Positions 54,147-64,000 of a stretch of 64,000 nt of DNA are shown here, in pieces (position 1 is the first letter of the stretch; each line of letters begins with the position of its first letter). The translations under genes and the position numbers were made by a program. Under the pieces are notes generated by a model. That model made no database searches, was not told the DNA's origin, and saw only the letters and a list, made by a program, of their open reading frames with translations. Source of the DNA: Deltaproteobacteria bacterium (GTDB taxonomy: Bacteria; Desulfobacterota; Binatia; Binatales; Binataceae); the NCBI GenBank assembly GCA_021831785.1, contig JAKBMB010000025.1:2377-66376 (forward strand). Reading direction: 5' to 3'.

Positions 54147-54198
54147 AGGCTAAGCGATATCAATCATGCAGTCAAATACAATTCTTAAATGCTGTTGA
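54147..54198 (-). promoter_or_regulatory. cbb operon promoter with CbbR box
   Basis: TTGACT-17 nt-TAGCCT (54175-54147); upstream TCA-N7-TTA (54198-54186) fits the CbbR TNA-N7-TNA motif; AT-rich divergent spacer. Confidence 0.7.
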
Positions 54199-54210
54199 TT
54201 GATTATTTCT

Positions 54211-55155
54211 ATGGCTAGTTCCAGACTTGAACGTCAGATTACGCTTCATCAGCTCCGCGTTTTCAAAAGCGTCGTCGAGCATCGCGGCTTTACCAGTGCC
54301 GCCCGTGAGCTCTTCTTGAGCCAGCCCGCCGTAACCCATCAGATGCAGACGTTGGCGGGCGCGATCGGTTATCCGCTGTTCCAGCCCGACCGAAAGCGCT
54401 TCGCACTGACGCCGGTGGGTCAGGCGCTGTACGAGCGCGCCGGGCGGATTCTGGCCTTGGTGCGCGAGACAGGCGAGGTAATAGACGACCTTGCCGGACT
54501 GCGCACCGGCTCGCTTCAGGTCGCGGCGGATACCACGGTCGGAATTTATGTGATACCTGACGCGCTCGCCGAATTTCACCAGCGCCATCCGTTCATCAAA
54601 TTGCGCCTGGAGGTGGCTAATCGGGCGCGCGTGCGCGAACTGCTCGAGCGCGGCGACGCCGACCTGGGGATTCTCGGCCGCCTGTGGACCGATCAGGTGC
54701 TCGAAGCCGAGCCGTTCATGGAAAATAGCATCATGTGGTTTTGCGCGCCGAGCCATCCGCTGGTCGAGCGCGAACCGCTGCATCCTAAAGCGCTGCTCGA
54801 AGGTCCCCTGCTGTTGCGCGAACCGGGCTCAGGCACGCGGGAAACGGCGGAGACGGCGCTGAAAAAACACGGCGTCGAGCCGGTGGCGGCGATGGAGATC
54901 GCAAGCAACGGGGCGCTTAAGCGCGCGGTCGGCGGCGGTCTTGGCGTCGCCGCGTTTTCGACTTGGGCGGTCAGGCTCGAACTAGCCTCGGGCCTGCTCC
55001 ATCCGCTTCGCGTGCGCGGCTTTCCCATCAAAAGAACGTGGCACCTGGTACGGCTTCGGGGCCGGCTTTTGAGCCCCGCCGCGCGCGCCTTCCGCGACCA
55101 TCTCCGAAGCCCGCAGTGGCGCAAACGAATCCCGCTGTCGTTGGGCAGCGAGTGA
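54211..55155 (+). CDS. cbbR: LysR-family regulator CbbR
   Basis: ITLHQLRVF...FTSAARELFLSQPAVT HTH, LLREPGSGTR; divergent from the cbb genes. Confidence 0.9.
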   Translation: MASSRLERQITLHQLRVFKSVVEHRGFTSAARELFLSQPAVTHQMQTLAGAIGYPLFQPDRKRFALTPVGQALYERAGRILALVRETGEVIDDLAGLRTGSLQVAADTTVGIYVIPDALAEFHQRHPFIKLRLEVANRARVRELLERGDADLGILGRLWTDQVLEAEPFMENSIMWFCAPSHPLVEREPLHPKALLEGPLLLREPGSGTRETAETALKKHGVEPVAAMEIASNGALKRAVGGGLGVAAFSTWAVRLELASGLLHPLRVRGFPIKRTWHLVRLRGRLLSPAARAFRDHLRSPQWRKRIPLSLGSE

Positions 55156-55194
55156 CCAAAGGACGCGGACCACGCGCGCGCCGCGGCCGCGTTC

Positions 55195-55239
55195 GGCACC
55201 GCGGCCCGCCCCACTACTCAAAACTTCACCAACGCTCAG
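55195..55239 (+). repeat. REP/MITE-like element, copy 2
   Basis: GGCACCGCGGCCCGCCCCACTACTCAAAACTTCACCAACGCTCAG; between convergent cbbR and metH, overlapping the metH stop. Confidence 0.7.
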
Positions 55240-58200
55240 AATGACGCGCGGGCGCCCGTTGTCTCCGCTTCGTCTCCCAGAGCGCGCTCGAGGGCCTGCG
55301 CGTCCGCCTGGGAGAGAGCGAAATATTTCGCCTCGGGATGGTGGAAGACCATCGCGCTGACCGAGCTCTCCGGGTCCATCATGAAGCCCTCGGTGAGCTT
55401 GAGCTCAATGGCGGCTTCGAGGTTCAGCAGGCGGAAAAGCTGGGCCTGGTCTTCGAGCCGGGGGCAGGCCGGGTAGCCGAAGGAGTAGCGCCGGCCATGG
55501 TAGCGCGCCTGAAACAGGTCTTTCATCGTCAGACCCGGCGGGTCTCCGATTCCCCACATCGCGCGGATTTTCTTATGCAGCAGCTCGGCGAACGCTTCAG
55601 CGCTCTCCAAAGCCAGGGCCTGGAGAATGTGCGAGCGCAAATACTCGCCCTTTTCTTTCCACTTGTCAGCCAATGCGCGCACGCCGGCGCCGATCGTCGT
55701 CGCGAAAAAGCAAATGTAGTCAGCGCGGCCCGAGCCCACGGGCGCGACGTAGTCGGCCAGGCACAGATGCGGCGGCTCGCTCTGGCGGCCGAAGATGAAT
55801 GTGGTCAAGGTGGTCTTGGCGTCAGCGTCATAGATGATTACCCGGTTTTCGTCGGAGTGCGCCGGGAAAAAGCGGTAAACCGCGTTGGCGCTGATGTCCG
55901 CGCGCGCGAGCATCACTTCCTCGACTTCGGCAACCGCCGCGCGCAGTTCGCGCGCCTTCGCATCGCCGGCGTCCAGCGCCTGCTCGAACTGCTTGAAGCC
56001 GAGATGGCGCGTATAGAGCATCAGCGGGTTGATATAGCGGAAGATTTCCTCCAGGTCATAGTTGCGCAGCACGCGCTGAACGAGGTCAGGTGGCCTGGGA
56101 ATCGGCGCCTCGCCAACCGGTCTTCGAGCGCGCGCGGGCGCCGGCTGGGGCGCACTTTGCGCCGGGGCGGAGGCCAACAAGCGGCGGGTCTCGTTCGCTA
56201 GGCGTTCGGCCAGCTTGGGCCTGAGCGCGTCGTCCATGAGTTGGTTTGCCAGGTCGAGCCCCTCCATCGCGTCTTTGGCGTAGGCGACGATCCCCCCATG
56301 CTCGGGCGCGATCTTGATGCGCGTGAAACGCGCGGAAAGCGCGGCGCCTCCCACGAGGAGTGGGCACGCAACGCCGGCATTTTTGAGGTCTTGCGCCGTC
56401 ACCGCCATCATCTGCGCCGACTTAACCAGAAGCCCGGACAGTCCGATCAGGTCCGGCCGATGGTCGCGGTAAGCCTGGATGATCGTCTCCGGCGGCACCT
56501 TGATTCCCAGATTAACTACGCGGTAGCCGTTGTTGCTTAGGATTATCTCGACCAGGTTCTTGCCGATGTCATGGACGTCGCCTTTGACCGTGGCCAGGAT
56601 AATCTTGCCTTTGACCGCGCTCTCGGCCTTTTCCATGTGGGGCTCGAGGTAGGCGACGGCCGCCTTCATGACCTCGGCCGACTGGAGTACTTCGGCGACG
56701 ATCATCTGATTGCCGTTGAACAACCGGCCTACCTCGGCCATCCCGTCCATCAAGGGGCCATTGATGATGTCCAGCGCCGCGCTGGTCTTGAGCGCCAGGT
56801 CCAGGTCTTCCCTAAGCCCTTCTTTAGAGCCTTCGATGACGGCGCGCGAGAGCCTTTCCTTAAGCGGCATCGACGCGCGTTCCGCCGGCGGGCGCCCGAG
56901 CTTCTTTTCGCGAAAATAGGCGTTGAAGGCGCCGAGCGGATCGCTTCCGCGCCACCAGATCAAATCCTCGGCCAGCGCCCGCTCCGGCTCCGGTATTGAC
57001 GGGTAGCGCTCGAGCTTTTCGGTGTTGACTATAGCGAGGTCCAGCCCGGCCTGAACGCAGTGGTAAAGCATGACCGAGTTGAGCGTCTCGCGCCCGGCCT
57101 GGGGCAAGCCGAATGAGACGTTGGAGAGCCCAAGCATGGTCTTGCAGCGCGGCAAGGCCGCCTTGATCGCCTTGATCCCTTCGATGGTCTCGACCGCCGA
57201 GCCGATGTAGTTCGGATCGCCGGTTCCGATGGGGAAGACAAGCGGATCGAAGATGATGTCCTCGGGTTCGATGCCGTACTTGCCGGTCAGAAGCTCGTGG
57301 GAGCGCAGCGCGACCTCGAGCTTGCGCGCGCGCGTGACCGCCTGCGCCTGCTGCTGGTCGTCGTCGATACAGCCGACGGCCAGCGCGGCGCCGAAGCGGC
57401 GCGCAAGCGGCGTGACGATGCGAAAGCGTTCCTCGCCGTCCTCGAGATTAATCGAATTAATGATCGCCTTGCCTTGGATGCGCTTGAGCGCTTGCTCGGT
57501 GGCGTGCGCGTCGGTCGAGTCGACCATCAGCGGAACTTTGACCTTCTTCACCAGGACTTCGAGCAAGCCGGTCAGGTCGGCGAGCTCGTCGCGGTCGGGG
57601 TCTTGCAGACAGACGTCGAGAATATGGGCGCCGCGGCGCACTTGCAGGCGGCCGACTTCGGCCGCCTCCTCGAATTTCCCGTTGGCGATGAGGCGTTTGA
57701 ACTTGCGGCTGCCAAGCACGTTAGTGCGCTCGCCCACCAGCACCGGCCGGGTGTTCTCGTCGATGACCAGGGTTTCGATTCCGGCTACCACCGAGCGCTT
57801 AAGCGTTGAGGGCCGGCGCGGGCGCCGGCCCTCGACGGCCTCAGCGATGCGCCGTATATGCTCGGCGGTGGTGCCGCAGCATCCGCCGGCCAAATTGACC
57901 CAATCCTGGTCGGCGAAGCGGGCGATTTTGTCCGCCAGCATATCCGGCGTCTCGGCGTAGCGCCCCTCTTCGTCGGGTAGGCCGGCGTTCGGCACGCAAG
58001 CCACGAAAAAGCGGCTTATCTGCGAGAGCGTGCGCAGGTGGTCGGTCATGAAGTCGGGACCGGTCGCGCAATTGAGCCCCATCCAGAGCAGGTCGCGATG
58101 AGCGAGCGAGGTGTACAACGCTTCGATATCTTGTCCGGCCAGAAGCGTGCCCATCTGCTCGATCGTTCCGGAGACCGCAACCGCGGCCCGCGCCCCGAGC

Positions 58201-58763
58201 CTATCCAGTGCGCGTTCGATTCCAATCAGCCCGGCCTTGGCGTTTAAGGTATCTTGCACGGTCTCCAGCAGCAGGATATCGGCACCGCCTTCCACTAGCC
58301 CCTCGGCCTGCTCCTGGTAGGCGTCGCATAGCGCGTCGAAAGAGACGCCGCCGGTAAGCGAAATAGTCTTCGTCGTGGGCCCCATCGAGCCCGCCACGAA
58401 ACGCGGCTTTCGCGCCGTAGTGGCGGCGTCGGCCGTCTCGCGCGCGAGTTGCGCGGCCAGCCGATTAAGCTCGCGGGCGTCGCGCCCAATCCCGTACTCG
58501 GCGAGCACGATCGAAGTCGAGCCGAAGCTGTCCGTCTCAACGATATCGGCTCCGGCCTCGAGATAGCTCTCGTGAAGCGCGCGAATCTTGTCCGGCCGGG
58601 TGCGAACCAGATTCTCGTTGCATCCCTCCAGCTCGGCCCCGCCGAAATCGTCGTCGGTGAGCTTCATCGCCTGAATGGCGGTGCCGATGGCGCCATCGAG
58701 CACCAGGATTTTTTCCTCCAGCGCTTGGCGCAAAGTCTTAAGCCGTGCCTCGTCTTTGCTCAT
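55236..58763 (-). CDS. metH: Cobalamin-dependent methionine synthase
   Basis: LVLDGAIGT, GLNCATGP, GGCCGTT, GERTN, B12 motif ATVKGDVHDIGKN, RYSFGYPACP; start at MSKDE. Confidence 0.96.
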   Translation of the reverse strand: MSKDEARLKTLRQALEEKILVLDGAIGTAIQAMKLTDDDFGGAELEGCNENLVRTRPDKIRALHESYLEAGADIVETDSFGSTSIVLAEYGIGRDARELNRLAAQLARETADAATTARKPRFVAGSMGPTTKTISLTGGVSFDALCDAYQEQAEGLVEGGADILLLETVQDTLNAKAGLIGIERALDRLGARAAVAVSGTIEQMGTLLAGQDIEALYTSLAHRDLLWMGLNCATGPDFMTDHLRTLSQISRFFVACVPNAGLPDEEGRYAETPDMLADKIARFADQDWVNLAGGCCGTTAEHIRRIAEAVEGRRPRRPSTLKRSVVAGIETLVIDENTRPVLVGERTNVLGSRKFKRLIANGKFEEAAEVGRLQVRRGAHILDVCLQDPDRDELADLTGLLEVLVKKVKVPLMVDSTDAHATEQALKRIQGKAIINSINLEDGEERFRIVTPLARRFGAALAVGCIDDDQQQAQAVTRARKLEVALRSHELLTGKYGIEPEDIIFDPLVFPIGTGDPNYIGSAVETIEGIKAIKAALPRCKTMLGLSNVSFGLPQAGRETLNSVMLYHCVQAGLDLAIVNTEKLERYPSIPEPERALAEDLIWWRGSDPLGAFNAYFREKKLGRPPAERASMPLKERLSRAVIEGSKEGLREDLDLALKTSAALDIINGPLMDGMAEVGRLFNGNQMIVAEVLQSAEVMKAAVAYLEPHMEKAESAVKGKIILATVKGDVHDIGKNLVEIILSNNGYRVVNLGIKVPPETIIQAYRDHRPDLIGLSGLLVKSAQMMAVTAQDLKNAGVACPLLVGGAALSARFTRIKIAPEHGGIVAYAKDAMEGLDLANQLMDDALRPKLAERLANETRRLLASAPAQSAPQPAPARARRPVGEAPIPRPPDLVQRVLRNYDLEEIFRYINPLMLYTRHLGFKQFEQALDAGDAKARELRAAVAEVEEVMLARADISANAVYRFFPAHSDENRVIIYDADAKTTLTTFIFGRQSEPPHLCLADYVAPVGSGRADYICFFATTIGAGVRALADKWKEKGEYLRSHILQALALESAEAFAELLHKKIRAMWGIGDPPGLTMKDLFQARYHGRRYSFGYPACPRLEDQAQLFRLLNLEAAIELKLTEGFMMDPESSVSAMVFHHPEAKYFALSQADAQALERALGDEAETTGARASF

Positions 58764-59046
58764 CCAGCTAGCCTTTCCGCGAATTAGTCGGCGAACTCTT
58801 AGTCGCAAATGGCCGGCGCCGTTGCCGTGAGCAAGAAGCAACCGGCCTGTGTGAGACAAGTGTAGCCGATGTTTGTCGCCGCGTCAGGTGCGGATGCGGC
58901 CGGCGTTCTTTCCCATCGAGCGTGCCTGTCCCTATATCCAGCGCTCATGACCAGAAGCGGTCTCATAAATGGTCTTGCTTGGATTTTGCGGAAAGTGAAG
59001 TCGCGGCGGGGCTTTCGTTGCCCTGCGTGCGGCGCGCCGGTTTGCG

Positions 59047-59182
59047 CCTCTCCCGACGGGGAGAGGCCGGCGGGCCCGCCGGGCCCGCCGGGTGAGGGAC
59101 CACTGAAAAACAACAATTGCTGCGCGCCCCGTCCGGCTCAGCACCCTCACCCCAGCCCTCTCCCGCTTCGCGGGCGAGGGGG
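59047..59182. repeat. Inverted pair of CCCTCTCCC/GGGAGAGG palindromic repeats
   Basis: CCTCTCCCGACGGGGAGAGG...GGTGAGGG (59047-59098) and CCCTCACCCCAGCCCTCTCCCGCTTCGCGGGCGAGGGG (59144-59182). Confidence 0.7.
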
Positions 59183-59384
59183 GCAGACAAGGGCTGCGCG
59201 GGCGAGGGAAGGGAAAACGTCGGCATCTTGCTGAGGCGCTACTTATGAGATGACTTCCAGGTTGCGACGAACCAGAGCGTCGGATCGTGTCGACGTTGCC
59301 ACCTTCTTGGGTTGGGTGAGCTGCAATCCGCGTGGCGACCCGGGGGTTTGCGCGCGTAGTCTTGACTTATGTTTGCCTACCATG

Positions 59385-59402
59385 AAATGGTATAGACCAT
59401 TT
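59385..59402. promoter_or_regulatory. GntR (HutC/DasR/NagR)-type operator upstream of the lasso enzymes
   Basis: Palindrome AAATGGTATAGACCATTT. Confidence 0.6.
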
Positions 59403-59478
59403 AAATCGACCTCTGCTCCGCTTGCGCGGGCGGCTTGCGCTGCGCGATTGGCGATTGCCGGCGGGAGGGCTTTTTAAG

Positions 59479-59778
59479 ATGGCTACACGGCAGCTTGAAA
59501 TGGCTTCAGTCGTAGTTGCAAGCAAGGAGCAGGTTTCCTGCGACCTGGCTGGAGAAGCGGCAATTCTCAACCTCAAGAACGGCAGCTATTACGGGTTGAA
59601 CCCGGTCGGCGCGACGGTTTGGGACTTGGTAAAAGAGCCGATTTCGATAAGCGCCCTACATAGCGCCGTCTTGGAGCGCTATGAGGTGGAGCCCGAGCGC
59701 TGCGCCGGCGATCTGCTGAATCTGTTGGGAGAGATGGTCGAGCAGGGGCTGATCGAGGTCAAGCGCGCCGATGAATAA
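59479..59778 (+). CDS. Lasso peptide RRE (PqqD-family, B1)
   Basis: QVSCDLAGEAAILNLKNGSYYGLNPVGATVW...YEVEPERCAGDL...GLI. Confidence 0.93.
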   Translation: MATRQLEMASVVVASKEQVSCDLAGEAAILNLKNGSYYGLNPVGATVWDLVKEPISISALHSAVLERYEVEPERCAGDLLNLLGEMVEQGLIEVKRADE

Positions 59779-60259
59779 GTTGCTGCGGCTGAGTGCCGCG
59801 GAATACCTGCTTCTAATCGGTGCGATGCTCAGCGTGGGCGCGGCGCGGCTCGCGCTATGGCTGCTACCCTTTCGCATCGTAAGCCGCCTCGGCGACGGAC
59901 GGGCGCGTCGCGACACTGCACTACCTCTCCCCGCAAAGGGCGGGAATGCCAGGAACGGGGCCGCGCCACAGCGGTTCTCCCCTCAGCGTGTGGCGTGGGC
60001 GGTAATGGCCGCAAGCCGGATGCTTCGCGGCGAGCGGGTATGCCTGGTGCGCGCGCTGGCGGCCCGATGGATGCTGGCCGCACTGGGGCATCCCTCGGAG
60101 TTGCGCATCGGGGTTGCCAAAGCGCCCGGCGGCAAGTTCTCGGCCCACGCCTGGCTTGAGAGCGAGGGCGAAATCGTGATCGGCGGAGCCGAGGCAGAAA
60201 GCTTTACGGCCCTACCGCCGCTTACGCCGGACCATTCACGAGCGGCTAACGCGCCATGA
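59771..60259 (+). CDS. Lasso peptide leader peptidase (B2, transglutaminase-like)
   Basis: CLVRALA (catalytic Cys), LRIGV, AHAWLE. Confidence 0.93.
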   Translation: MNKLLRLSAAEYLLLIGAMLSVGAARLALWLLPFRIVSRLGDGRARRDTALPLPAKGGNARNGAAPQRFSPQRVAWAVMAASRMLRGERVCLVRALAARWMLAALGHPSELRIGVAKAPGGKFSAHAWLESEGEIVIGGAEAESFTALPPLTPDHSRAANAP

Positions 60260-62199
60260 GCGGGATCGCAGCGATATACAATTTTGACCGCCGGCCGGTC
60301 GACCTCGCTCTGCTCGAGCGCATCACCGAGGCGGCCGCTTATCGCGGGCCCGATGCGGGCGGCGTGTGGCACGAAGGCCGCGCCGGGCTGGGCCATCGGA
60401 TGCTGCACACCACGCCCGAGTCCCTGCGCGAGACGCAGCCGCTGGTTGACACTACGGCGAAGCTCGCGCTGGTCATGGACGGGCGCGTCGACAACCGCGA
60501 CGAGCTTATCACCGACTTGCGCGCTCACGGCGTCCGCCTCGCCGACGAAACCGACGCCGAGATCGTGCTGCGCAGTTATGAGCTTTGGCGCGAGGACTCA
60601 CCGCGCCGGATAATCGGCGATTTCGCTTTTGTAATCTGGGATGGGCGCGAGCAGCAGTTATTCTGCGCGCGCGACCCGTTCGGCATCAAGTCGTTCTATT
60701 ACCACCGCGACGCGCGGCGCTTTTTGTGCGGTTCCGAGCTTCACCAAATACTTGAAGACGCCACAGTGCCGCACGAGCCCAACGAAGGCATGGTCGGCGA
60801 GTACCTCGCCGACCGTATCAGAAACCGCGAAGAGACGCTGTTCAACGGCATCTTCCGCCTCGAACCGGCCCATTATCTCATCATTCGAGAAAGCGGACTC
60901 GTAAAGCGCCGATACTACGATATCGACCCGGAAAACCGGATAGTCCATGGCAGCGACGATGAGTACGCCGCCCATTTCCTTGAGCTGTTCAAGCAGGCTG
61001 TGGCCTGTCGCATGCGCAGTTGCACGCCGGTCGGCGCGGAGTTAAGCGGGGGGTTGGACTCATCCTCGGTGGCTTGCACCGTCCAGCTCTTACTTAAGAG
61101 CGGCGCATGTGCTGCGCCCGGTTTCGAGACCTTTTCCGCGGTATATCCGGGCTTGCCCTGCGACGAGAGCGAATACATCGCGAGCGTGGTCGAAAAGGCT
61201 GGTCTCAAGGCAAATTTGCTTCGGCCCGGGCCAACGCCGCCGGGCAAGTGGGTGACCGAGGCGCGTCGGTTTGGCGACTTTCCGGGCTACGCGAACGGAT
61301 TGATGAACGAAGCCGTCTTAGATTCCGTGCGCGCCAAGGGCATGAGGGTCGTGCTTACCGGCGTTGGCGGAGATGAATTTCTGACCGGCAGCTTCCGCCA
61401 TTGCGCCGACCTGTTAAGCAGGCTTGAGCTCCGCGCGTTAATCGGTTACTTGCGGGACGCTTTTTCGAGGTACGGGCTCGAGCCCTGGCGGCTGGGCGAC
61501 CTCCCTGCCGTTGCCGCGATCATGCGCGATGTCGTTCGACCGCTGGTTCCTTTGCCCGCAGTCCGTGCGCTTAAGCGGCTGCGTAGGCGCGATCCCGTAC
61601 CGAGCTTCATCAACCGGGAATTCGCTCGGCGAAGCGCCTTGGCCGAGCGCCTTACCGTCGAGGAGAAAGTTCCCAACGCTTTCAGCTTCGCCCAGGCTCA
61701 TATGTATGGCGCGCTGCTGGACGGGCGCCTTTGTCAGGCCGCGGAACAAGGCAGCCGTTCGGACGGTGCCTACGGAATCGAGAGCAGGCACCCGTTTTAC
61801 GACCGGCGCATAGTGGAGTTTGCATTTGGTATCCCTGAAGAGCAGCGCCACTGGCGAGGCCTAACTAAGCTCGTCTTGCGCAACGCGATGAGGGGCATTT
61901 TGCCTGAAAAAGTACGCCAGCGGCGGACCAAGGCCGAGTTTTCTTCGACGGTGCTTCAGGAGCTGGAAGCCTTGGGCGGTGAGCGGTTATTCGCCTCGCT
62001 CGCGATCGCTGAGCTCGGATGGGTGAACCAAGAGGAGGTGCGCCGGATGTACCGCCGGGCTGTGGCTATTAGCGCGGCAGATGGAGACCCCGCTTTAACT
62101 CGGCTGCGCGAACTGTGGCGGCTCTTCGGCATTGATCTGTGGTACAGAGTTGGTTTTCTCGATCGGGGTGGACAAAAAACGCGTACCTGTGCTGCATAA
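60256..62199 (+). CDS. Lasso cyclase (asparagine synthetase-like, C protein)
   Basis: MSGI start (Ser in place of the glutaminase Cys), ARDPFG, ELSGGLDSS, TGVGGDE, RHPFYDRR; translationally coupled to B2. Confidence 0.92.
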   Translation: MSGIAAIYNFDRRPVDLALLERITEAAAYRGPDAGGVWHEGRAGLGHRMLHTTPESLRETQPLVDTTAKLALVMDGRVDNRDELITDLRAHGVRLADETDAEIVLRSYELWREDSPRRIIGDFAFVIWDGREQQLFCARDPFGIKSFYYHRDARRFLCGSELHQILEDATVPHEPNEGMVGEYLADRIRNREETLFNGIFRLEPAHYLIIRESGLVKRRYYDIDPENRIVHGSDDEYAAHFLELFKQAVACRMRSCTPVGAELSGGLDSSSVACTVQLLLKSGACAAPGFETFSAVYPGLPCDESEYIASVVEKAGLKANLLRPGPTPPGKWVTEARRFGDFPGYANGLMNEAVLDSVRAKGMRVVLTGVGGDEFLTGSFRHCADLLSRLELRALIGYLRDAFSRYGLEPWRLGDLPAVAAIMRDVVRPLVPLPAVRALKRLRRRDPVPSFINREFARRSALAERLTVEEKVPNAFSFAQAHMYGALLDGRLCQAAEQGSRSDGAYGIESRHPFYDRRIVEFAFGIPEEQRHWRGLTKLVLRNAMRGILPEKVRQRRTKAEFSSTVLQELEALGGERLFASLAIAELGWVNQEEVRRMYRRAVAISAADGDPALTRLRELWRLFGIDLWYRVGFLDRGGQKTRTCAA

Positions 62200-62235
62200 A
62201 AATGCATGGATTTTAAAGACAGGCCATAAATTCGC

Positions 62236-62263
62236 TTGACTTAGCGTAAATTGATGCTACGGT
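62236..62263 (+). promoter_or_regulatory. Candidate sigma70 promoter for the lasso precursor
   Basis: TTGACT-16 nt-TACGGT with TGn extension, in an AT-rich spacer. Confidence 0.35.
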
Positions 62264-62412
62264 AGCCGTTAGTGACTTGAAGTTTTCTTGGTTTCGCAAA
62301 AATTGTTTGCATTGCGCCCAGCGTTTCGGTATCCATTTGATGACGAAATGAGGGCGACAGGCTCGATAGGATAAAGAACAAAGCAACGACCGGACAGGAG
62401 GTATCAGTTGCG

Positions 62413-62428
62413 ATGGGTCTAGACAATC
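62413..62428. promoter_or_regulatory. Second GntR-type box, upstream of the lasso precursor
   Basis: ATGGGTCTAGACAATC shares the GGT-N-TAGAC core with 59385-59402. Confidence 0.45.
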
Positions 62429-62475
62429 TTGCAGGACGAAGGCTGCAATCCGTAGGTGCAGAGAAACAGGCGGAA

Positions 62476-62610
62476 ATGAGCGCGCGTCAACGATACGAGG
62501 CGCCCAAGCTGGTTCATTACGGGAGCGTCGCGGAACTCACCGAGGCCGGAAAGAGCCGTGGTGCCAATGACGGACAGCACCGCCCGTTTGTTGGCGGTGT
62601 AGGGCTGTAA
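62476..62610 (+). CDS. Lasso peptide precursor (A), 44 aa
   Basis: MSARQRYEAPKLVHYGSVAELTE-AGKSRGANDGQHRPFVGGVGL: YxxPxL..G leader motif, Thr at -2, Asp at core position 9. Confidence 0.9.
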   Translation: MSARQRYEAPKLVHYGSVAELTEAGKSRGANDGQHRPFVGGVGL

Positions 62611-62711
62611 ATACCGGCTCGTGGCGGGATGCCTGAGCTCTGGGAGGCGGGGAGTACCCGTGGTACGTCCCTAGGCCGGCGCGTCACGCGAGGGCAAGGC
62701 GTACGTAGCCC

Positions 62712-63734
62712 GTGCGTTATCTGGCATATGGCCTCGCGGTGGAGAGCGATGCCCGACTGCCCGAGCTGCCGCAGCTCGAGACAGTCGTCGACGCTCGCGT
62801 TGACTTAGCGGCTCGCTTAGCCCGCCCGTCGGGCGTGATGCCGGAGGTTCTGGATGTGGTCCAGACCAGAGCGCACGATGATGGAGCGCCGTGGATAAGG
62901 ATCGCCCGGACCGCGTCGGGCTATCTGATTAGCGAAGCCGGCACGGCTGACTTTGCGGTTGACCGGCACGGGCGCGAGGTCGTTTTGTGCCGGGCCGGGC
63001 CCGGGGTTTCCGAGCTCACGCTCCGCCACGTATTGCTGGACTGGGTGCTCGCTCTGGTCCTATGCCTGCGCGGTAAGCAGGTTCTGCACGCGAGCTCGAT
63101 CGTCACGCCGGACGGACTTTGCGCCTTCGCTGGCCCGTCGGGCGCCGGGAAGTCCACTCTGGCAGCGAGCTTTATCGCCGCCGGCTATCCCCTCTTGTGT
63201 GACGATTGTCTCGTGGTTGAAAAAAGCGCCGAGGCCGGGCGCTTTGAATGCACGCCGGCCTATCCGGGGCTTCGCCTTTGGGATGATTCGGTAGATGCCT
63301 TAGGGCTCAGGGCGGACGTCACGCAAAGCGTGGCGGGTTATATGCCCAAGCATCGCGTCGTCATCGAAGATCGCGCAAACGGCTTGACCGCAGGAAGCCA
63401 CCCGCTGGCGCGAGTGTACTGCATTAATCGCAGGCCTAGGGCGGCCGGGTTCGAAATGCCGTCGGTCGAACCGCTTGAAGGTAAAGACGCCCTGATCGAA
63501 CTGGTCTCGCGCTCGTGGATGTGCGATCCTACCGACAAGACGGCGCTGGTGAAGCATTTCCGCTTTTTTGAGTCGCTAGCAAAGCACGTCGCCGTCAGGA
63601 AACTTCGCGTGCCCGACGATATTGCTCTGCTCCCGGACGTCCGGAGGGCAGTGCTGGCCGACCTGGCCGGTGAGCGACAGGCGAGTTCAGGCCACTCGAA
63701 GCAAGCGCTGCCTTACGAATCGCAGCCTCGATAA
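62712..63734 (+). CDS. HPr-kinase-like lasso tailoring kinase
   Basis: LHASS, GPSGAGKSTLA, LLCDD, RLWDDS; immediately after the precursor. Confidence 0.85.
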   Translation: MRYLAYGLAVESDARLPELPQLETVVDARVDLAARLARPSGVMPEVLDVVQTRAHDDGAPWIRIARTASGYLISEAGTADFAVDRHGREVVLCRAGPGVSELTLRHVLLDWVLALVLCLRGKQVLHASSIVTPDGLCAFAGPSGAGKSTLAASFIAAGYPLLCDDCLVVEKSAEAGRFECTPAYPGLRLWDDSVDALGLRADVTQSVAGYMPKHRVVIEDRANGLTAGSHPLARVYCINRRPRAAGFEMPSVEPLEGKDALIELVSRSWMCDPTDKTALVKHFRFFESLAKHVAVRKLRVPDDIALLPDVRRAVLADLAGERQASSGHSKQALPYESQPR

Positions 63735-63824
63735 GGAGTCTCGCAAGCCTAAACACCTGCCCCGGCAGCCACCTACCGTATTCTCCCATTAGTGAAGCCT
63801 GTCAAAGCTGTCCACCATTCCGGA

Positions 63825-63967
63825 AGTTTGTGATTTTTTGAGTAGTGGGGCGGGCCGCCGTGCCCGCCATGATGCGCGGGCGCCGCGCCCGCGCGGCCAA
63901 TGAATTACCGGGGACCAGGGCCAGGCACGGCGGCCGCAGCGGCGGGCACGACGGCCCGCCCTACTAC
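63825..63967. repeat. REP/MITE-like element copies 3 and 4, forming an inverted pair
   Basis: AGTTTGTGATTTTTTGAGTAGTGGGGCGGGCCGCCGTGCCCGCC (63825-63868) and GGCGGGCACGACGGCCCGCCCTACTAC (63941-63967). Confidence 0.75.
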
Positions 63968-64000
63968 TGCTTCGGCCCATGCCTAACGCCTTTAGCGCTG

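Follow-up and report, generated by a model that had tools for sequence, protein, structure and literature searches.

Which residue does the kinase of a lasso peptide cluster modify when the encoded peptide has no serine at its C-terminus? The question is raised by a locus in the 64,000-nucleotide (nt) stretch analysed here (the window), which corresponds to positions 2377-66376 of contig JAKBMB010000025.1 (C30) in the genome of an uncultured Binataceae bacterium, GCA_021831785.1 (G000). In the open reading frame list for window positions 56000-64000 we found five genes on the plus strand between 59479 and 63734, in the order B1-B2-C-A-K. The original prediction, made from the DNA alone, had described them as B1-B2-C-A-kinase, and family matches for all five genes agree with that description. 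The locus is almost certainly a genuine lasso peptide cluster. Our reading, to which we assign a probability of roughly 60%, is that it is a class II lasso cluster tailored by a kinase and a nucleotidyltransferase, with B1-B2-C-A-K in the window and the nucleotidyltransferase (N) and exporter (D) genes across an assembly break. The kinase, which the original prediction left unaddressed, is the most informative feature of the locus.

The three core enzymes were assigned by family models. B1 (59479-59778; 99 amino acids) is a PqqD-like recognition element (RRE) of RiPPs (peptides made by ribosomes and modified after translation), a leader-binding chaperone; it matches the Pfam PqqD model with 63.4 bits (cut-off 23.4) and NF033536 (lasso_PqqD_Bac) with an E-value of 1.6e-20. 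B2 (59771-60259; 162 amino acids) is a transglutaminase-like leader peptidase with matches to Transglut_core3 (PF13471; 87.9 bits, E 5.8e-25) and NF033537 (lasso_biosyn_B2; 98.8 bits, cut-off 33). C (60256-62199; 647 amino acids) is an asparagine synthetase-like macrolactam cyclase that matches Asn_synthase (PF00733; 153.7 bits, E 1.4e-44), GATase_7 (101.7 bits) and the lasso cyclase model NF033535, the last with 481 bits, which is under its strict cut-off of 525. The cyclase carries a PP-loop (SGGLDS) at residue 264, and its N-terminus, MSG, lacks the glutaminase Cys2. It is the single lasso-type cyclase match in its own genome. Judged by these matches, the RRE, cysteine protease and asparagine synthetase-like cyclase of class II lasso clusters are all present. 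B1 and B2 overlap by 8 nt and B2 and C by 4 nt, which suggests translational coupling. For B1 we prefer the ATG at 59479 over a TTG at 59422 as the probable start; the N-terminus (MA...) is kept in the B1 of a sister species of the same genus (G001), which is 76% identical.

The precursor gene A (62413-62610, plus strand) encodes 65 amino acids and matches NF033521 (lasso_leader_L3) with 23.7 bits (cut-off 19). Translation confirmed the leader motif YxxPxLxxxGxxxxxT and the core position that had been predicted: a 44-residue leader (62413-62544) is followed by the 21-residue core AGKSRGANDGQHRPFVGGVGL (62545-62607). Counted back from the Glu|Ala junction, the leader has Tyr-17, Pro-14, Leu-12, Gly-8 and Thr-2. 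The spacing -17/-14/-12/-2 is also the one described for lasso leaders by Duan et al. 2023 (PMC10368454). Among 22 aligned precursors from related clusters, P31, G37 and T43 never vary, and Y28 and L42 hardly do. The positions of Tyr-17, Pro-14, Leu-12 and Thr-2 point to cleavage before Ala and an isopeptide ring between Ala1 and the acceptor Asp at core position 9, as had been proposed from Thr at -2, and we consider this Ala1-Asp9 ring very probable. The likely precursor start, on sequence grounds, is the first ATG (62413). This ATG and its Shine-Dalgarno sequence AGGAGG are kept in G001, and the N-terminal part of the leader differs between the two species by an in-frame 9-nt indel.

The composition of the core is simple. 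It has no Cys, which places the peptide in class II. Its sole hydroxyl residue is Ser4, with no Ser, Thr or Tyr elsewhere, and its C-terminal residue is Leu. His12, Arg13 and Phe15 of the tail are plug candidates, and Arg13 and Phe15 are the likely plugs. The peptide had been called unfamiliar, and a search of 5.8 billion proteins retrieved only the window precursor itself and one metagenomic protein (P0002) that is 81% identical; the core of P0002, AGKSRGANDGQHRPFVGGVF, has the same ring and the same tail except for its last residues, ending in GGVF. A precursor search among proteins of 30-34 amino acids gave no matches, and a literature search found neither the ring string nor lasso peptides paired with 'Binat'. 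The peptide AGKSRGANDGQHRPFVGGVGL is new, and the type of system that encodes it is already known.

Two kinds of described systems bear on the kinase question. In the first, the kinases of paeninodin, ThcoK, SyanK and pseudomycoidin (PsmK/PsmN) (poly)phosphorylate the C-terminal Ser of the linear precursor, and PsmN adds a hexose to the phosphate (PMC8498205 and PMC9266682). These systems share with the window cluster the split B1/B2, an HprK-like kinase, an ATP-binding cassette (ABC) exporter and often a nucleotidyltransferase. The window kinase also has the His-Lys-Asp-Asp residues of the C-terminal-Ser kinases (H126, K147, D164 and D165; motif according to PMC9266682 and PMC10368454). However, the C-terminal Ser acceptor of the paeninodin type is absent from the window core. 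Because the core ends in Leu, phosphorylation of a C-terminal Ser is excluded and the cluster is not of the paeninodin type. With no C-terminal Ser in the core, the applicable precedent is ring-Ser phosphorylation.

That precedent, the bsf cluster of Bradymonas sediminis FA350 (PMC10368454), is the closest described system. It consists of genes A, B1, B2, C, D, K and N. BsfK phosphorylates the ring Ser3 of the leader-bearing precursor but not the bare core, and B1 strongly accelerates the reaction. The window cluster has all seven of these genes, where adjacency of N and D to the window genes is our reconstruction (see below). Both precursors lack a C-terminal Ser, carry a Ser towards the N-terminus of the ring, and have the leader YxxPxL at -17 to -12. 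The eight-residue motif of the two kinases agrees in residues and spacing, which is the one feature on which K and BsfK were compared. The two systems differ in gene order and host phylum, in the residue at -2 (Thr in the window, Ile in bsf; the Ile/Val(-2) feature of the Bradymonadales group, as that source gives it, is absent from the window) and in the ring, which is Gly1-Asp8 with Ser3 in bsf and, as predicted, Ala1-Asp9 with nine residues and Ser4 in the window.

K (62712-63734, plus strand) encodes 340 amino acids from a GTG start. It matches HprK-type models weakly (Hpr_kinase_C, E 6e-3 and 16.6 bits with a gathering threshold of 33.3; TIGR04352, E 7e-8), and a PDB sequence search gave only matches of E 0.07-0.09. 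Its neighbours in the ESM Atlas are clusters without names, some members of which carry Hpr_kinase_C or ScmC. The catalytic motif consists of H126, G141, G144, G146, K147, S148, D164 and D165, with the P-loop GPSGAGKST at 141-149. Across 30 aligned sequences, H126, G146, K147, S148 and D165 never vary; G141, G144, T149 and D164 are almost as constant. The offsets from H126 (+15, +18, +20, +21, +22, +38 and +39) are those of the motif reported for BsfK (H148-G163-G166-G168-K169-S170-D186-D187; PMC10368454). An AlphaFold2 model built from the 30-sequence alignment had a predicted local distance difference test score (pLDDT) of 89.1 and a predicted template modelling score (pTM) of 0.87. The top Foldseek match of the model was the Lactobacillus casei HprK/P 1kkl (E 2.3e-6, target TM 0.60), with 1kkm and 3tqf also found, followed by phosphoenolpyruvate carboxykinases. 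In the model, K shares its P-loop and catalytic-domain fold with HprK/P of L. casei (1kkl) and C. burnetii (3tqf), whereas identity is 13-14%, the all-beta N-terminal domain differs, and the context is a RiPP cluster rather than the phosphotransferase system. K is thus a remote but genuine HprK/P-fold protein whose P-loop is intact.

K has a homologue next to the cyclase at 68 of the 80 related loci (tblastn, E <= 1e-3); among the other 12, several are truncated near the cyclase. In an uncurated tally of candidate precursors collected by regular expression from the K-bearing loci (n = 68), a C-terminal Ser occurs in 4, a Ser or Thr in the ring in 63, and a Ser or Thr at position 3 or 4 in 40. 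A quickly built maximum-likelihood tree of 54 K sequences places the window kinase in a clade of nine with an SH-aLRT (Shimodaira-Hasegawa-like approximate likelihood-ratio test) support of 98; members include a Binataceae metagenome-assembled genome (MAG), three genomes of the same family and a Nitrospira MAG. All nine cores paired with this clade have a Ser or Thr at ring positions 2-5. As Ser4 is the sole hydroxyl of the window core, the site is fixed if the core is phosphorylated at all. That K phosphorylates Ser4 is, in our estimate, slightly favoured.

The kinase and nucleotidyltransferase could instead act on a leader residue, on the mature peptide (for self-protection) or on an unrelated substrate, so that the product would be a plain, unmodified lasso peptide. 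Such an account could draw on the C-terminal Leu, which leaves kinases of the C-terminal-Ser type (PadeK, ThcoK, SyanK, PsmK) without a target, and on the scores of K, which lie under the Pfam and NCBIfam cut-offs. Paeninodin is made in both phosphorylated and unphosphorylated forms, and the function of BsfN is not known (PMC10368454). We nevertheless consider it unlikely, since K co-occurs tightly with this cyclase clade in the 68 loci, its eight-residue catalytic motif is complete, a ring Ser or Thr is retained in the K-bearing clade, and phosphorylation of a ring Ser is directly documented for bsf, a cluster of the same gene set.

The ortholog in G001 bears on the size of the ring. G001 has the same cluster (L099/L100), flanks and leader end (...AELTE), with a core, VKSTGAKDAANRRYGL, that would form a Val1-Asp8 ring and has a shorter tail; its precursor lies at L099:12702-12875, and the core is predicted to open with Val. 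Identity between the two species is 56% for the precursor, 67% for K, 68% for N and 77% for D. At the start of the core the aligned DNA of the two species differs by an indel of one codon, Ala-Gly in the window against Val in G001. With cleavage set by Thr(-2), the window ring would have nine residues with Ser4 and the G001 ring eight residues with Ser3.

If the leader of the same cluster were cut one residue later, the window peptide would have a Gly1-Asp8 ring, GKSRGAND, with its serine at position 3. Then the G001 ring VKSTGAKD (eight residues, Ser3) would align to it at K2, S3, G5, A6 and D8, across a difference of one codon, and the serine would fit the position-3 regiochemistry of BsfK. 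Eight-residue rings are also the commonest in relatives: in 75 cores predicted by the same regular expression, the acceptor is at position 8 in 40, at 9 in 31 and at 7 in 4, so nine-residue rings are frequent as well. The later cut, however, would shift each leader residue by one, with Thr at -3, Tyr at -18, Pro at -15 and Leu at -13. It would break a spacing that is kept in 22 of 22 aligned precursors and stated for lasso leaders, and because of this we rate it as quite improbable and retain the Ala1-Asp9 ring. Under that ring the serine would stand at position 4; only the later cut would place it at position 3, the acceptor position of bsf.

The first residue itself is not unusual. The original prediction had noted that Ala1 is less common than Gly1, which holds for the 75 predicted cores (33 Gly, 22 Ala, 5 Ser, with Ile, Gln, Lys, Val, Thr, Asn, Arg and Phe among the rest), although Ala1 is still common in this clade. 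If the core predictions are right, the cyclase clade tolerates unusual N-terminal residues.

The original prediction had also called the cluster complete while seeing no exporter or isopeptidase before the window end. We likewise found no exporter or isopeptidase within the window. Completeness has to be qualified, because two further cluster genes, N and D, lie on another contig (C7). Past position 64000, where the original prediction had pointed, C30 continues for 499 nt and stops inside a dispersed repeat. A first copy of this palindromic hairpin repeat, which is outside the pathway, lies at 63816-63969 (about 150 nt, no strand assigned; arms 63841-63868 and 63941-63968). It has 81 matches in its own 3.68-Mb genome, several of them at contig ends, and folds with -101.8 kcal/mol (z -5.7). 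It looks like an element of the repetitive extragenic palindromic (REP) or miniature inverted-repeat transposable element (MITE) type, and it fragments the assembly. C30 ends in a second copy, and C7 opens with this repeat as well; the C30 end (L001:3558-3700) and the C7 start (L102:1-141) agree without a difference over 126 nt.

The order in G001 shows what may follow K. There, the genes run C-A-K-N-D, with A-K-N-D contiguous; N is a PF14907 (NTP_transf_5) nucleotidyltransferase (E 3.1e-54) and D an ABC exporter. Used as queries against the G000 genome, N and D of G001 gave one match each, at C7:240-1421 (68%) and C7:1453-3240 (77%). These correspond to intact open reading frames for a PF14907 nucleotidyltransferase (C7:234-1421, E 1.6e-51) and an ABC exporter (C7:1453-3243). 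In G001, D is adjoined by the gene that lies left of metH in the window, and metH by the epimerase gene that follows D on C7. The block of metH and lasso cluster (window 54164-62199, compared with L099/L100) is thus flanked by the same pair of genes in both genomes but turned round, a sign of an inversion between the sister species. From the repeat overlap and the synteny with G001 we infer that C30 and C7 are adjacent and that the full cluster is B1-B2-C-A-K-(two repeats)-N-D. The epimerase was considered as a sugar supply for N and rejected, since its G001 homolog is on the other side, by metH, and it is therefore a flank gene. Over the interval from K to the contig end, sequence from four runs of two studies, which are possibly the source samples, covers K without differences.

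In the pathway that we propose, the RRE protein B1 would bind the 65-residue precursor through its YxxPxL leader, and K would move a phosphate from a nucleoside triphosphate onto Ser4 with the leader still attached. N may further decorate the Ser4 phosphate. B2 would cut after Glu-1, with Thr at -2, C would adenylate Asp9 and close the Ala1-Asp9 isopeptide ring around the tail, and D would export the product. The threading of the tail, like any bioactivity, we infer. The most far-reaching form of this proposal is a lasso peptide with phospho-Ser4 in the macrolactam ring, to which N may have added a phospho-glycosyl or nucleotidyl extension, with position-4 regiochemistry and a switch between eight- and nine-residue rings in the sister species. 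We put it forward tentatively, as less likely than not.

Several observations weigh against this picture. In four runs every short-read contig stops at the first repeat, which leaves the join of C30 to C7 unbridged but also uncontradicted. The spacer between K and N would be about 800-870 nt long with two hairpin repeats, compared with 65 nt in G001, and such a repeat-filled spacer could uncouple N and D. No RNA run is among the sequencing runs with the locus; product, phosphorylation and expression are predicted from sequence. PMC10368454 reports that the bsf cluster gave no mature lasso peptide in five hosts and that BsfK is strictly selective for position 3, while the Ser here is at core position 4. 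Orthology of K to BsfK is putative and is drawn from motif spacing and gene context. The tally of ring Ser and Thr has no proper control (n = 7 candidate precursors from loci without K), and at least two rows of the regular-expression core tally, the second L062 match and L093, look false. Finally, a ring Ser or Thr is missing from some cyanobacterial cores at K-bearing loci, so not all of the wider family would have a phosphorylated ring. That the two hairpin repeats broke the operon and left a decaying or silent cluster with no exported product is very unlikely: strongly folding repeats do fill a spacer far longer than that of G001, but all seven reading frames are intact without internal stops, the catalytic motifs are kept, and the repeat, present throughout the genome, is evidently tolerated between genes.

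Little was found outside the genes themselves. In the C-A spacer, a block of about 60 nt (62290-62350, plus strand) is nearly identical between G000 and G001 with diverged surroundings, and on this conservation it may be a promoter or operator of the precursor gene; a simple promoter scan found nothing there. Across the scan, promoter-like and terminator-like hits did not exceed shuffled sequence (one promoter-like with 1.2 expected, two terminator-like with 5.7 expected) and were all inside gene C. The fold of the A-K spacer is insignificant (z -0.97), and Rfam gave no matches in 58800-64000. The metH-B1 spacer (619 nt) holds a second, different dispersed repeat family (window about 59035-59260), with 37 matches in its own genome, mostly to the central 150 nt or so.

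We surveyed the distribution of the locus. In 24 genomes of the same family, cyclase matches with E <= 1e-100 in one piece were found in nine, including G001, in which the gene runs off the contig end; three more had split matches, and the weaker matches are probably ordinary asparagine synthases. The MetH of the window is 76% identical to that of the L015 (Candidatus Binataceae) and L019 genomes, 69% to that of a second Binataceae MAG, and 43-44% to that of the L014 (uncultured Nitrospira) and L009 (Deltaproteobacteria bacterium) genomes. Taken with the neighbours of K in its tree, this one protein points to a Binataceae-like bacterium. DNA of the locus was present in ten runs from four studies; eight of these runs, from two studies, are labelled mine drainage and sediment metagenomes and are possibly the source of the locus, and so are not independent.

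Some cores of related clusters have distinctive tails. In Acidobacteriota and Deltaproteobacteria MAGs (L009, L010, L011 and L013), Met-rich core tails end in Cys-Leu, an unusual conserved C-terminus, for example GGQGTGADTGTTMMMMCL and NGQGSGNDGGPNAGMMMVCL. Predicted cores of Nitrospira and Nitrospirae MAGs (L014 and L016) have extremely basic Gly-Lys repeat tails (GSKGSFSDGKRRRKGGKGKGKN). Archaeal genomes of Methanobacterium (L040, L042, L053 and L058) have related cyclase, B1 and K genes with candidate precursors, and in the K tree the kinases of L040, L053 and L058 group together with good support.

As a genome feature the locus is ordinary, one more RiPP cluster and no surprise to a specialist, and it is a first lasso candidate from this uncultured lineage. 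As scaffolds, lasso peptides are stable, with activities that include antibiotic action and receptor binding, and modifications within the ring are seldom found. Phosphorylation of a ring Ser has been studied in only one cluster, whose mature peptide was never obtained (PMC10368454). The relatives of the window cluster form a large, mostly uncultured clade across Binataceae, Acidobacteriota, Nitrospirota, Chloroflexota, Cyanobacteriota and Methanobacterium, with the same kinase and cores with a ring Ser or Thr. Within it, the single-hydroxyl core offers a simple alternative substrate for the chemistry of ring phosphorylation and the role of N, and the G000/G001 pair is a natural comparison of nine- and eight-residue rings for cyclase specificity. 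If the phospho-Ser4 lasso peptide put forward above is indeed made, no mature natural product of the ring-phosphorylated class would precede it, the bsf cluster having yielded none, and it would also be the first lasso peptide of the uncultured Binataceae.

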